Made by a program: the position numbers and the translations under genes | Source of the DNA: Escherichia coli | GTDB lineage: Bacteria; Pseudomonadota; Gammaproteobacteria; Enterobacterales; Enterobacteriaceae | Reading direction: 5' to 3' (one strand) | Assembly: GCF_050320075.1 (NCBI RefSeq) | Contig: NZ_CP190018.1 | DNA: 64,000 nucleotides | The notes under the pieces: generated by a model | Seen by the model: the letters and a program-made list of their open reading frames with translations, nothing else | What the model was told of the DNA's origin: nothing | Database searches by the model: none | In this document: piece by piece, positions 10,633 through 63,154 of the stretch | Numbering within the stretch: position 1 is the stretch's first letter | How the letters are laid out: the number at the start of each line of letters is the position of its first letter

Positions 10633-11237
10633 TGGCGCTGCATGACGAAAACGTCGTCTGGCATAGCCATCCGGTCACTGTGCAACAACGCGAGCTACAC
10701 CACGGTCATCGTGGTGTAGTGCTGTGGTTTACCGGCCTCTCCGGGTCCGGTAAATCAACGGTCGCCGGGGCGCTGGAGGAGGCGTTACATAAACTCGGCG
10801 TCAGTACGTATCTGCTGGATGGCGACAATGTTCGCCACGGATTATGCAGCGATCTCGGTTTTAGCGATGCCGATCGTAAAGAAAATATCCGTCGCGTCGG
10901 TGAAGTGGCGAATTTGATGGTTGAAGCCGGACTGGTGGTGCTGACCGCATTTATCTCGCCACACCGCGCCGAACGCCAGATGGTTCGCGAACGCGTAGGA
11001 GAAGGGCGCTTTATCGAAGTGTTTGTCGATACACCGCTGGCGATTTGCGAAGCCCGCGATCCAAAAGGCTTATATAAGAAAGCGCGTGCCGGTGAACTGC
11101 GTAACTTTACGGGAATAGATTCCGTTTACGAAGCGCCTGAATCGGCAGAAATTCATCTCAATGGTGAACAATTAGTAACAAATTTGGTACAGCAATTATT
11201 AGATCTGTTGAGACAGAACGATATTATCAGATCCTGA
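10632..11237 (+). CDS. cysC: Adenylylsulfate (APS) kinase
   Basis: 201 aa, P-loop GLSGSGKST. Confidence 0.97.
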
Positions 11238-21007: not shown

Positions 21008-21010
21008 ATA

Positions 21011-21041
21011 AAAGGTCCGATGCCCATCGGACCTTTTTATT
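21011..21041. terminator. Bidirectional terminator between convergent ecdD and ygbN
   Basis: Stem GGTCCGATG/CATCGGACC flanked by an A-run and TTTTT. Confidence 0.7.
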
Positions 21042-27068: not shown

Positions 27069-27094
27069 CTCATGCTTCACAGAAGAAGCATGAG
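27069..27094. terminator. Hairpin between convergent ygbI and pphB
   Basis: Perfect 10-bp stem CTCATGCTTC/GAAGCATGAG with loop ACAGAA. Confidence 0.6.
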
Positions 27095-27752: not shown

Positions 27753-27857
27753 GGTTTTACCCTGTAAAATAAGATTTCCTATTATACAGGGTGTTTTTAT
27801 TTGATTCGTCTGTTGTCGTTAATATTCCCGATAGCAAAAGACTATCGGGAATTGTTA

Positions 27858-31050: not shown

Positions 31051-31088
31051 ATCTGCCGGAGAGCCATACTCTCCGGCAAATAAGGCGC

Positions 31089-56440: not shown

Positions 56441-57955
56441 ATGAGTTTTTCCGTTGATGTGCTGGCGAATATCGCCATCGAATTGCAGCGTGGGATTGGT
56501 CATCAGGATCGTTTTCAGCGCCTGATCACCACGCTGCGTCAGGTGCTGGAGTGTGATGCCTCTGCGTTGCTACGTTATGACTCGCGGCAGTTTATTCCGC
56601 TTGCCATCGACGGGCTGGCGAAGGATGTACTCGGTAGACGCTTTGCGCTGGAAGGGCATCCACGGCTGGAAGCGATTGCCCGCGCCGGGGACGTGGTGCG
56701 CTTTCCCGCAGACAGCGAATTGCCCGATCCCTATGACGGTTTGATTCCCGGGCAGGAGAGTCTGAAGGTTCACGCCTGCGTTGGTCTGCCATTGTTTGCC
56801 GGACAAAACCTGATCGGCGCATTGACGCTCGACGGGATGCAGCCCGATCAGTTCGATGTTTTCAGTGACGAAGAGTTACGGCTGATTGCCGCGCTGGCGG
56901 CGGGAGCGTTAAGCAATGCGTTGCTGATTGAACAACTGGAAAGTCAGAATATGCTGCCAGGCGATGCCGCGCCGTTTGAAGCAGTGAAACAGACGCAGAT
57001 GATCGGTCTGTCGCCAGGTATGACGCAATTGAAAAAAGAGATTGAGATTGTGGCGGCGTCCGATCTCAACGTCCTGATCAGCGGTGAGACGGGAACCGGT
57101 AAGGAGCTGGTGGCGAAAGCGATTCATGAAGCCTCGCCACGGGCGGTGAATCCGCTGGTCTATCTCAACTGTGCCGCACTGCCGGAAAGTGTGGCGGAAA
57201 GTGAACTGTTCGGGCATGTGAAAGGAGCGTTTACTGGCGCTATCAGTAACCGCAGCGGGAAGTTTGAAATGGCGGATAACGGCACGCTGTTTCTCGATGA
57301 GATCGGCGAGTTGTCGTTGGCATTGCAGGCCAAGCTGCTGCGGGTGTTGCAGTATGGCGATATTCAGCGCGTTGGCGATGACCGCAGTTTGCGGGTCGAT
57401 GTGCGCGTGCTGGCGGCGACTAACCGTGACTTACGCGAAGAGGTACTGGCAGGGCGATTTCGCGCTGACTTGTTCCACCGCCTGAGCGTGTTTCCACTTT
57501 CAGTGCCGCCGCTGCGTGAGCGGGGCGATGATGTCATTCTGCTGGCGGGGTATTTCTGCGAGCAGTGTCGTTTGCGGCTGGGGCTCTCCCGCGTGGTATT
57601 AAGTGCCGGAGCGCGAAATTTACTGCAACACTACAATTTTCCGGGGAACGTTCGTGAACTGGAACATGCTATTCATCGGGCGGTAGTGCTGGCGAGAGCA
57701 ACCCGCAGCGGCGATGAAGTGATTCTTGAGGCGCAACATTTTGCTTTTCCTGAGGTGACGTTGCCGCCGCCAGAAGTGGCGGCGGTGCCCGTTGTTAAGC
57801 AAAACCTGCGTGAAGCGACAGAAGCGTTCCTGCGTGAAACCATTCGTCAGGCGCTGGCGCAAAATCATCACAACTGGGCCGCCTGTGCGCGGATGCTGGA
57901 AACCGACGTCGCCAACCTGCATCGGCTGGCGAAACGTCTGGGGCTGAAGGATTAA
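56441..57955 (+). CDS. norR: NO-responsive sigma54-dependent activator NorR
   Basis: 504 aa from [18 protein letters not shown]; GAF domain, AAA+ GETGTGKE and GAFTGA, C-terminal HTH. Confidence 0.96.
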
Positions 57956-58917
57956 ATAATCCCGGCCTGATAGAAATCCTGCAGGTTAATTGCGCCGGTG
58001 AGTTTGCCGTTTTCATCCACCACCGGTGCGGCAGTGATTTTGCGCTTCATCAGGATCTCTTTGGCGTCGATGGCACGGCTTTGCGCCTGTAATGTGGTGC
58101 CGCCTGTCGTCATCGCTTCATTAACTGGCGTGGTGAGTGCGCCGCCGCCAACCAGCCAGCGACGTAAATCACCGTCGGTAAAGACGCCTTGTACCTGTTG
58201 TTGAGCGTCACATACCGCCACCAGCCCCAGACCAGTGCGGCTAAGTTCCAGCATCGCGTCCATCACGCTGGCGGTTAACGCCACCTGCGGGATGGCATCG
58301 TCACGACGCATAAGATGATGCACTTTGTTCAGCAAGCGAGCGCCCAGCGCACCGGCTGGATGTGAACGGGCAAAATCTTCTTCATTAAAACCGCGCGCCT
58401 GCATGACTGCCATCGCCAGCGCGTCGCCCATCATCAGGGTATTTACAGTGCTGGAAGTCGGCGCAAGGTGCATCGGGCAGGCTTCGCGTTCTACGGAAAT
58501 ATCCAGCACCGCTTTCGCCGCCAGGCCCAGCGGTGACGTCGGTTTGCCGGTCATCGCCAGCAGCGCGATAGATTTATCTTCCAGACGCGGAATAATCAGA
58601 TCCAGTTCCTTCGCGCCACCGGAGTAAGAGATAAACAGCATCACATCGCGGCTTTCGATCATCCCCAGGTCGCCGTGCAATGCCTCTGCCGGATGGACAA
58701 AAAAGGCAGGAGTGCCGGTGCTGGCAAGCGTTGCGGCGATTTTCTTACCAATGTGGCCCGATTTGCCAATTCCCGAAACCACCACTTTACCTTCGCAGTG
58801 CAGGATGATATTGGCGGCGCGAACAAAATCATCGCCCAGACGTTCCGGTAAACGGCTTGCTTCCTGTAACTCCAGCATTAACGTCTGACGTCCCGCGTTC
58901 AGTAGTGCTTCACTCAT
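57952..58917 (-). CDS. gutQ: D-arabinose 5-phosphate isomerase GutQ (SIS + CBS domains)
   Basis: 321 aa. Confidence 0.95.
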
Positions 58918-59683
58918 TGCTCTCTCCGGTTATGATCACATCGATCCCTTTCTTTTCCAGCGCCTGACGAAACGCCGGATCGATACCTGCGTCGGTAATT
59001 AGCTTATCGACGCTTTCAAGACTGCAAACTACGTTGGGGCTTTTACGGCCAAACTTTGATGAGTCTGCCATCAAAATCACTTCGCGCGCGGCATTGCACA
59101 TTGCCTTACTGACGGTATAAACCTCGTTGAACGTGGTTACGCCCGCATTGAGATCGATGCCGTCGGTGCCCATAAACAATTTATCGAAGGTGAAATGCTC
59201 GAAGGCATTCTCTGCCAGTTGCCCGTGAAATGAGGCCGATTTTTTACGAAATGTTCCGCCTGGCATCAGGATAGTTTGTTCGTTATCCAGTTCGGATAGC
59301 GCATTGACGATATGCAGGCTGTTGGTCATCACTGTGATGTTATTAAAGCGCGAGAGCAGGGGAACCATCTGCAAAACGGTACTGCCAGCATCAAGAATGA
59401 TCGAATCGCCATCATGGATAAAACTAACGGCAGCTTCTGCAATCAGCTCTTTCTTGTGGGTGTTGATGAGAGTTTTATGATCGATAGGCGGATCGGATTC
59501 CTCTTTATTCAACACCACTCCGCCATAAGTACGAATGACGGTTCCGGCATGTTCCAGAATGACCAGATCTTTGCGGATGGTTGTGCCTGTGGTGTCAAAG
59601 TATTGCGCCAATTCTTCAACCGAGCATTTACCCTGCTTTTGCAGATACTCCAGAATGGCGGCCTGACGCTGACGAGGTTTCAT
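58910..59683 (-). CDS. srlR: Glucitol operon repressor SrlR (DeoR family)
   Basis: 257 aa. Confidence 0.95.
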
Positions 59684-59749
59684 GGGCGTGATTACCTGAT
59701 TTAGGTTTCAAAATGATAACTTCGCAAGCAAGTAACATTCACAACGAAA

Positions 59750-60109
59750 TTATCCACGTTTCAGTTTAAGCGCCAATGATAGAGCATTCTGTGATAGTGG
59801 ATCATGGGGAAAGATCACATCGGGCTGTAAATCACCCGCATGCATACCGGTAATTGCGGGAATTTTTTGCGGTCGGGCGAAGACGGTCAGTCCTTTCATA
59901 AACAAGGTGTCGACGATGCGTTGCTGATCGTCTAGCGCGATGGCGACCACGACCCGCGGTTTAAAGCGCCCGCTGGAACGGCCCACGCCAACCCGCCCTT
60001 GCTGGCATAGTGTGTCGAAAGCACGGTTAAAACGAGAAATTTGCCAACCGCCTAAGGCCAGTTGCGCACACCAGGCGATAACGGCGACGGTGATGAGTGC
60101 GGATACCAT
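59750..60109 (-). CDS. gutM: Glucitol operon activator GutM
   Basis: 119 aa. Confidence 0.93.
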   Translation of the reverse strand: MVSALITVAVIAWCAQLALGGWQISRFNRAFDTLCQQGRVGVGRSSGRFKPRVVVAIALDDQQRIVDTLFMKGLTVFARPQKIPAITGMHAGDLQPDVIFPHDPLSQNALSLALKLKRG

Positions 60110-60144
60110 AACTTTTCCTTAATGTAGTGGCGGAAGTCCTGTAG

Positions 60145-60169
60145 GCCTGATGAGCGTAGCGCATCAGGC
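60145..60169. repeat. REP-like palindromic element
   Basis: GCCTGATGAGCGTAGCGCATCAGGC, arms GCCTGATG/CATCAGGC, resembling E. coli REP sequences. Confidence 0.45.
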
Positions 60170-60183
60170 ATTTTATTAGTCTC

Positions 60184-60208
60184 GCGGAGATCCTTAACGG
60201 ATCTCCGC
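60184..60208. terminator. Perfect hairpin immediately downstream of srlD
   Basis: GCGGAGATCC-TTAAC-GGATCTCCGC, 10-bp perfect stem, 6 nt after srlD stop codon. Confidence 0.5.
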
Positions 60209-60214
60209 TGTTGA

Positions 60215-61369
<1,155 letters not shown>

Positions 61370-61379
61370 GTTTCAGCCT

Positions 61380-63154
<1,775 letters not shown>

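Follow-up and report, generated by a model that had tools for sequence, protein, structure and literature searches.

The window, that is, the whole stretch of 64,000 nucleotides of Escherichia coli DNA that was analyzed, contains the sorbitol (srl/gut) operon on its minus strand, and all the features described below lie on that strand. According to the open reading frame list and the RefSeq annotation, the genes follow one another in the order srlA (62336-62899), srlE (61380-62339), srlB (60998-61369), srlD (60215-60994), gutM (59750-60109), srlR (58910-59683) and gutQ (57952-58917). The srlD gene encodes sorbitol-6-phosphate dehydrogenase and terminates with a TGA stop codon at 60217-60215; gutM is the first of the regulator genes gutM-srlR-gutQ. 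The names srlD and gutM were taken from RefSeq, from strain CFSAN061763 (100% identity over 601 bp) and from K-12. The working of the sorbitol circuit depends on how the activator GutM and the repressor SrlR are balanced.

The spacer between srlD and gutM is 105 nt long (60110-60214). In the direction of transcription, from the srlD stop codon to the gutM start codon, its mRNA reads TGA-TCAACA-(GCGGAGAUCC-GUUAA-GGAUCUCCGC)-GAGACUAAUAAAAU-(GCCUGAUGCGC-UAC-GCUCAUCAGGC)CUACA-GGACUUCCGCCACUACAUUAAGGAAAAGUU-AUG, where the parentheses enclose two stem-loops. An earlier note on this DNA had described a palindrome and a perfect hairpin in the spacer. Both are real, and the complementarity of their arms agrees exactly with the positions given for them. 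The linker between the srlD stop and the hairpin, TCAACA (60214-60209), confirms the 6-nt distance claimed in the same note, and its length is invariant in the Escherichia alignments.

The hairpin, called hairpin 1 below, was delineated by arm search and by folding and occupies positions 60184-60208 (GCGGAGAUCC-GUUAA-GGAUCUCCGC). Its arms (60184-60193 and 60199-60208) are complementary at 10 of 10 positions and enclose a loop of 5 nt, and its stem begins 6 nt past the srlD stop codon. Two GATC sites, at 60189 and 60200, are found inside hairpin 1, and the stop codon of srlD shares bases with another one, at 60213; all three fall within 28 bp. The A/U-rich linker GAGACUAAUAAAAU (60170-60183), which is variable and carries a 1-nt indel in K-12, separates hairpin 1 from the second stem-loop. 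The latter belongs to a REP element spanning 60141-60169 (sense strand GCCUGAUGCGCUACGCUCAUCAGGCCUAC), which consists of the palindrome proper (60145-60169) and of the foot tetranucleotide CTAC at 60144-60141 on the sense strand. The arms of the palindrome (60145-60155 and 60159-60169) are complementary at 10 of 11 positions with a loop of 3 nt. The REP lies 14 nt beyond hairpin 1 and 45 nt from the srlD stop.

The next nucleotide, 60140, corresponds by alignment to a transcript 3' end mapped in K-12 at 2828590, and the end would be expected at this position in the strain of the window. The remainder of the spacer is the gutM leader GGACUUCCGCCACUACAUUAAGGAAAAGUU (60110-60139), the sequence of which has more C than G, with a Shine-Dalgarno sequence AAGGA at 60120-60116; the C/G ratio in 50-nt windows of the leader region is 1.3-1.7. 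Further downstream, the interior of srlR (59384-59500) contains a C-rich window followed by the homologue of the best Rho coordinate of the region, as judged from base composition and from the data of Adams et al. 2021.

The two stem-loops and their conservation in Escherichia

Both stem-loops are far beyond chance, and hairpin 1 is the stronger of the two. When folded as RNA, hairpin 1 has an energy of -20.8 kcal/mol (z = -7.2), the REP -15.3 kcal/mol (z = -4.5) and the entire spacer -45.8 kcal/mol (z = -5.25). The 64-kb window contains 6 distinct perfect hairpins with a stem of at least 10 bp and a loop of 3-8 nt, compared to 0.63 +/- 0.84 in its dinucleotide shuffles, which corresponds to about 0.001 such hairpins expected in a 105-nt spacer. 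The minimum free energy fold also contains an outer helix between GUUCUG at the srlD stop and CAGGAC past the REP. This helix was set aside because a translating ribosome would occupy its 5' arm, and because a transcript with the mapped 3' end lacks the 3' arm. The sole match in Rfam 15, NiCo-AnGGAG, scores 25.4 bits against a gathering threshold of 64.5 (E = 0.038) and was taken as chance.

The second stem-loop, labeled REP-like in the earlier note, is indeed a member of the E. coli REP family, as its dispersed copies, its match to the consensus and its CTAC foot show. It has one mismatch to the degenerate consensus GCCKGATGCGNNNNGCNTNTCMGGCCTAC, and this consensus finds no match in 100 shuffles of the window. 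A 39-nt query covering the REP matches at least 20 places per genome, with a median of at least 40, in 5425 of the 5426 complete E. coli genomes. As in other E. coli REPs, the palindrome is imperfect, carries a CTAC/GTAG foot, is extragenic, lying within the 105-nt srlD-gutM spacer, and has many similar places per genome. It differs in that the spacer holds a single REP and no BIME pair, and in that its neighbor, hairpin 1, is not a REP. A BIME, an inverted pair of REPs, was considered and rejected: the spacer holds one REP match and hairpin 1 has no similarity to REPs. The CTAC foot has been lost in the alleles of K-12, O157 and 2011C-4251, which read ATAC (CATAC in K-12 and O157). The copy of the K-12 record NC_000913.3 that was examined carries no repeat features, and the srlD-gutM REP was not found in the text of the RepRanger supplementary tables. 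Public data already contain the REP together with the 3' end that follows it, and hairpin 1 appears to be undescribed in the literature that was searched.

Both elements are conserved across Escherichia. A 41-nt query covering hairpin 1 has a single match per genome in 5408 of the 5426 complete E. coli genomes, and this match is always located where srlD ends; hairpin 1 is thus a single-copy, locus-specific element. It is also present in 5 other Escherichia species-level genomes and absent in other genera. The exact 41-mer of the window is found in only 316 of the 5408 genomes, which makes the allele with the "perfect" stem a minority one. The alleles of K-12, O157 and B2 have one G.U pair each, located at the base of the stem in K-12 and O157 and, as U.G, at its top in B2 (Nissle).

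For a closer comparison, 14 distinct haplotypes were aligned: nine E. coli haplotypes of the RefSeq set, the window among them, and further haplotypes from E. whittamii, two other Escherichia species and two E. coli-labelled genomes from the GTDB species set. In this alignment, every one of the 140 stem cells of hairpin 1 is paired (100%). Seven base pairs are invariant, and the other three vary on one side only (GC to GU, UA to UG and CG to UG), each change giving a G.U wobble; at loop position 1, all four bases occur. The three wobbles pair on the sense strand only, which speaks mildly for a structure formed by the srl mRNA, rather than for an antisense RNA or a palindrome acting as DNA. Little weight can be placed on the wobbles, because the stem shows no compensatory double substitutions among the 14 haplotypes and the divergence is shallow. 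By our own count on the alignment, 5 of the 40 stem columns are variable compared to 15 of the 65 unpaired columns of the spacer, a difference that is not significant.

These observations bear on the possibility that the spacer holds no more than neutral or selfish DNA: the REP would be a parasitic insertion in a permissive spacer, hairpin 1 a lineage-specific palindrome without a selected function, and the 3' end a by-product. This reading is unlikely in our judgment, though far from negligible. The stems lack compensatory covariation, and their columns are not significantly more conserved than the unpaired ones, as neutrality would have it. Furthermore, hairpin 1 is disrupted in the natural strain XD35 by an IS5-family element inserted within the loop. 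However, XD35 is the only disruption among about 5400 genomes, and a palindrome that drifts freely would hardly be kept in 5408 of 5426 genomes with each of its stem changes preserving the pairing.

The spacer in other Enterobacteriaceae

GutM-anchored loci were collected from 70 species-level genomes, 67 of which have both srlD and gutM. The spacer between the two genes ranges from 41 to 612 nt in length and is non-homologous outside Escherichia. In Citrobacter, Klebsiella, Salmonella and Enterobacter it contains species-specific REPs or BIME pairs, the BIME-like pairs being found in Citrobacter, Klebsiella and Enterobacter. Short GC hairpins occupy the spacer in Trabulsiella, Pluralibacter and Kosakonia, CCCUCUCCC/GGGAGAGGG hairpins are present in Enterobacter and Lelliottia, and REP/BIME arrays of 550-612 nt fill it in Kosakonia cowanii and Phytobacter ursingii.

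In spite of this variety, the spacer is structured in most species. Over 65 species, the folding of the srlD-gutM spacer has a median z of -3.5, with 86% of the values below -2 and a median energy of -0.42 kcal/mol per nt. The gutM-srlR spacer of the same loci, which serves as a control, has a median z of -1.27, with 21% below -2 and a median of -0.21 kcal/mol per nt. In 56 of the 67 species (84%), a simple hairpin of -12 kcal/mol or lower begins no more than 15 nt after the srlD stop, compared to 68 of 201 shuffled spacers (34%). The median distance from the stop codon to the hairpin is 6-7 nt over the 67 species, the hairpins being unrelated in sequence. Five or more U residues in the 8-nt tail occur in only 2 of the 67 species, and a few other genera have a short GC hairpin with a partial run of U behind it. 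What is conserved next to the end of srlD is thus the presence of a stable stem-loop lacking a U tract, whereas its sequence is replaced; the species compared are related to one another, and REPs, being mobile, may simply prefer this spacer.

The comparison of genera cuts both ways for the neutral reading. The complete replacement of the spacer content between genera, and arrays as long as 550-612 nt in two of them, are what a permissive spacer would accumulate. On the other hand, chance insertion does not readily account for the excess of stop-proximal hairpins over the shuffles, nor for the unstructured state of the adjacent gutM-srlR spacer at the same loci. In a further reading, a stable stem-loop that abuts the srlD stop codon and lacks a U tract would be under selection in the sorbitol operon throughout the Enterobacteriaceae. 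It would have been rebuilt repeatedly from unrelated sequences (REPs, BIMEs, GC hairpins, CCCUCUCCC/GGGAGAGGG and hairpin 1) and would set the ratio of structural to regulator gene expression, possibly also via ribosome stalling. This proposal we consider distinctly unlikely.

The position of the hairpins also raises the question of an effect on translation. Hairpin 1 might hinder the terminating ribosome and thus lead to stalling, mRNA cleavage, tmRNA tagging and a lower level of SrlD. Liang, Rudd & Deutscher 2015, as quoted in PMC12306157, reported that REPs reduce translation via stalling and tmRNA when their distance from a stop codon is below 16 nt. Hairpin 1 resembles the elements of this class in being stable and in lying 6 nt after the stop, inside the limit of <16 nt, and both the invariance of this spacing in Escherichia and the median of 6-7 nt over 67 species with unrelated sequences are in accord with such an effect. 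The rule, however, was established with REPs, to which the single-copy hairpin 1 does not belong, and the srl REP, at 45 nt from the stop, lies beyond the limit. By simple reasoning, with the stop codon in the A site, the 6-nt linker puts the foot of the stem at about +13 relative to the P site, where little unwinding may be needed. Moreover, we know of no reason for down-tuning the last enzyme of the operon. That hairpin 1 acts mainly on translation is improbable.

Transcript ends, termination and internal initiation in K-12

The curated Term-seq data of Adams et al. 2021 (PMC7815308) contain one 3' end in the spacer of K-12, at 2828590 on the + strand, with 4666 reads. These data represent the K-12 allele in one condition, growth in LB to an OD of 0.4 with no sorbitol. 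The end is situated 31 nt before the gutM ATG, and its reported flank, ...GCCUGAUGCGCUACGCUCAUCAGGCAUAC[A]GG, places it 5 nt past the REP stem, at the position aligned with 60140 of the window. No 3' end after hairpin 1 is called in this curated set, and the TERMITe supplements have no entry for the 3' end in the spacer.

At 2828590, DirectRNA-seq gives counts of 585 upstream and 197 downstream in windows of 800 nt, and of 309 and 199, respectively, in the presence of bicyclomycin (PMC7815308). Coverage across srlD-gutM is thus non-uniform in K-12. By our own arithmetic, two overlapping count windows imply that at least 500 of the 585 reads fall in the last 44 nt, and most of the "upstream" reads appear to be the REP-ended species itself. 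Since DirectRNA-seq reads are very short and the counts are mostly a 3'-end peak, the drop from 585 to 197 is no plain coverage ratio. The Rho score of 2828590 is 1.91, which is below the authors' guide value of 2, and the authors mark the site as a significant Rho termination region; its intrinsic terminator score is 1.51, the cutoff being 3 (PMC7815308).

The best Rho coordinate of the region, 2829346, lies 299 nt into srlR and has a Rho score of 3.7 (p = 1.7e-18), with counts of 697 upstream and 76 downstream without bicyclomycin and of 386 and 156 with it (PMC7815308). It corresponds to position 59384 of the window, about 750 nt beyond the 3' end at the REP. Of all windows in the region, the richest in C, 59451-59500 (C 17, G 5), is located just upstream of 59384. 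The C-rich window and the Rho coordinate in srlR are probably linked to the events in the spacer.

According to the earlier note, the structures could stabilize the upstream mRNA or attenuate the expression of the regulator genes. As far as the REP is concerned, this idea fits the K-12 data, in which the 3' end lies 5 nt past the stem and the Rho score is 1.91. Neither structure is an intrinsic terminator, however, and the attenuation appears to depend on Rho, with its strongest signal inside srlR, away from the hairpins.

That one or both stem-loops are leaky intrinsic attenuators, which stop RNA polymerase between srlD and gutM, is very improbable. Both are stable, G+C-rich and placed where such attenuators should be, their size and energy are similar to those of intrinsic terminators, and a GC hairpin with a partial U run does occur in a few other genera. 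However, a U tract is missing behind both stems, whose tails are GAGACUAAUA and CUACAGGACU, and neither can therefore act as an intrinsic terminator; an A tract upstream is lacking as well. The terminator scan of 59600-60700 returned no terminator-like sites, the published score remains below the cutoff, the read-through appears to rise with bicyclomycin, and tails with five or more U residues are limited to 2 of the 67 species. Cleavage by RNase III was also considered, as the srl genes respond to YmdB overexpression. A stem of 10 bp is too short for RNase III, and such a site in hairpin 1 was rejected on this ground.

An internal promoter would change the meaning of the spacer, since the REP would belong to the leader of gutM if transcription started upstream of it. 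For supplementary file 3 of Adams et al. 2021, 3' ends that follow a stop codon were retained only when a transcription start had been mapped at most 200 nt upstream of them. Together with the entry for 2828590, this rule implies a start 21-200 nt upstream of the 3' end, that is, between 2828390 and 2828569. The SMRT-Cappable-seq supplements have no entry for an internal start. A genomic SELEX study with the RpoD holoenzyme lists the spacer as a constitutive promoter site, for which the hexamers are not given (PMC3946193). In our scan of 59600-60700, no promoter-like pair of hexamers passes in the spacer. By eye, a weak promoter candidate, TTAAGG-N16-TAAAAT, can be seen, with TAAAAT in the 60170-60183 linker, where the indel of K-12 alters the spacing.

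If such a promoter is active, the 10-N5-10 palindrome with its two GATCs might be the operator of a dimeric regulator, or a Dam/SeqA-sensitive site, controlling internal transcription of gutM-srlR-gutQ. The signals of a promoter just mentioned, namely the SELEX site and the start implied by the filter, speak for this possibility, as do the three GATCs within 28 bp. A preprint on strain ATCC 25922 reports, in addition, hypomethylation in each of four media for a GATC "corresponding to gutM". The coordinate given there, 777328, falls in ilvA of NZ_CP009072.1, the assembly being unstated, and gutM itself has three other GATCs. Westphal 2016 has nothing on srl or gut. Against such control, the three natural changes in the stem break the DNA symmetry and keep the pairing of the sense-strand RNA. 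Neither the srlA promoter nor the gutM-srlR spacer contains the half-site GGAGATCC, and the failure of the promoter scan weighs against a regulated internal promoter as well. Control at the DNA level is, on balance, quite improbable. As a separate observation, a perfect inverted repeat could itself depress the coverage in the methylation assay of the preprint.

An internal start combined with the 3' end at the REP might also produce a small stable RNA, which would carry hairpin 1 and the REP and have a function of its own. This is a less likely outcome. An RIL-seq-based resource of sRNA predictions has no entry for srlD or gutM in its supplements.

A putative exonuclease barrier and related systems

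By combining the structural, comparative and transcript data, it is possible to propose a course of events for the spacer. In this proposal, which we hold at a probability of roughly 0.55, the two stem-loops form a barrier to 3' exonucleases that defines the stable 3' end of the srlAEBD message upstream of the Rho-attenuated gutM-srlR-gutQ genes. The spacer would fold into two independent RNA stem-loops within the srlAEBD-gutM-srlR-gutQ transcript. Transcription from the srlA promoter would traverse the spacer, as neither stem-loop is an intrinsic terminator. Rho would then halt a part of the transcription downstream, most strongly about 300 nt into srlR. The released RNA would be trimmed by PNPase or RNase II until the exonuclease stalls at the REP stem-loop, and the outcome would be a stable srlAEBD message ending 5 nt past the REP.

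Hairpin 1, which abuts the srlD stop codon, may serve as the second barrier and keep the srlD coding sequence intact if the REP is breached. Against this role stands that the one 3' end called in the spacer is the one behind the REP. The net result would be that the mRNA of the structural genes is more abundant and longer-lived than that of the regulators. Exonucleolytic trimming at the srl locus after Rho termination in gutM or srlR is suggested by analogy with other Rho-dependent transcripts, and the effects on mRNA half-life, on protein ratios and on the ratio of structural to regulator mRNA would be expected to follow from the barrier. An internal start near the spacer would count against the barrier, because it would let the expression of gutM escape the control of the stem-loops.

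If the barrier model holds, the srl spacer is another case in which stem-loops within an operon give the enzymes and their own regulators different message levels. The pattern across genera represents a modest example of a structure that is kept while its sequence turns over. The locus could also serve as a natural test of the influence of stop-proximal hairpins on decay and on translation termination. In itself, the element is of a known kind in a well-studied operon, and it matters little beyond this operon.

The intra-operon REP between malE and malF is an mRNA stabilizer (Newbury et al. 1987, according to a citing paper). The srl spacer differs from it in that the boundary parts the structural genes from the operon's own regulators. 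In both operons, a REP lies between highly expressed upstream and lower-expressed downstream cistrons, and a 3' end is found past the stem.

A class of transcript ends to which the srl end can be compared was described by Dar & Sorek 2018. In their work, Rho-dependent transcripts end just past stable stem-loops that have no U tract, about a quarter of which are REPs, and such ends arise by trimming with PNPase or RNase II. The srl site is located within an operon and not at its end, its Rho score is only 1.91, and the strongest Rho signal comes about 750 nt later, in srlR. It shares with the class the lack of a U tract behind a stable stem-loop, a 3' end located a few nucleotides further on and a mild enrichment of C over G downstream, and its read-through appears to respond to bicyclomycin.

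Disruption of hairpin 1 and the sites around it

Hairpin 1, the perfect 10-bp stem with a 5-nt loop that lies 6 nt after the srlD stop codon (window 60184-60208), is interrupted by a mobile element in one strain. In E. coli XD35 (NZ_CP089142.1) an IS5-family element, the transposase of which is annotated as ISEc68, is located inside the loop (positions 1518-2726 of the srl/gut locus L082). The insertion point is the TTAA of the loop, homologous to window 60194-60198, and the element is flanked by a duplication of this TTAA target. As a result of the insertion the two arms of the hairpin are about 1.2 kb apart. XD35 is a natural disruption mutant of hairpin 1, and the only loop-interrupted case seen in about 5400 genomes.

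Three GATC (Dam) sites are found within 28 bp at hairpin 1, at window 60189-60192, 60200-60203 and 60213-60216, with spacings of 11 and 13 bp. Two of them are situated in the arms of the hairpin, and the third overlaps the srlD stop codon. According to a preprint (10.1101/2021.02.08.430217), a GATC assigned to gutM in ATCC 25922 is constitutively hypomethylated; a search for this site did not locate it. Upstream, a genomic SELEX study (PMC8743547) lists a peak of RpoN holoenzyme binding at K-12 2825748, in the coordinates of that paper. The study attributes the peak to the srlB/srlD junction and predicts srlD-gutM-srlR-gutQ as its unit; the equivalent window position is approximately 60995.

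Five further perfect hairpins (stem of at least 10 bp, loop of 3-8 nt) are present in the window, at 10695-10719, 21010-21037, 27069-27094, 27824-27852 and 31054-31078. The second of these has a 12-bp stem that starts with AAAA and ends with TTTT and, judged from its sequence, looks like a bidirectional terminator.

Repeats and reading frames in the srlD-gutM spacer

The srlD-gutM spacer has grown to 612 nt in Kosakonia cowanii (L063:889-1500) and to 550 nt in Phytobacter ursingii (L076:951-1500) by tandem REP/BIME-like repeats, which yield a run of near-identical, spurious 63-aa ORFs on the reverse strand. A 45-aa ORF of the window (60027-60164, minus strand) is almost certainly spurious as well; its start lies within the REP, and it runs into gutM in another reading frame. 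Such REP-derived ORFs do become annotated elsewhere: a REP match in JM109 sits under 'yahH'.

An Escherichia-type spacer also occurs on contig DXKH01000030.1 of a MAG labelled Citrobacter sp.; the GutM that this contig encodes is 100% identical to that of the window. Another contig in this MAG carries a Citrobacter-type locus, and the bin is probably contaminated with E. coli.

The gutM-srlR spacer

The gutM-srlR spacer (window 59684-59749; equivalents in loci L013, L018, L025 and L061) is probably an srlR promoter or operator. The 8-mer TCATTTTG occurs both in this spacer and in the srlA promoter, where it adjoins a GCGATC site at about 62982; the window holds 5 copies of it where 3.7 are expected, which is no enrichment. 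In Salmonella enterica subsp. diarizonae (L037:~1860-2127) the spacer measures 267 nt instead of the usual ~66 nt, owing to an insert that we take to resemble an ERIC element (GAATCCCCAGG...GTGACCGGGGTGAGCGAGG...CCAACGCACATGCAACTTGAAGTATGACG). The srlD-gutM spacer differs from the gutM-srlR spacer, as the latter is weakly structured and its sequence, TTTCGTTGTGAATG...CTTGCGAA.TTATCATTT, is conserved across genera.
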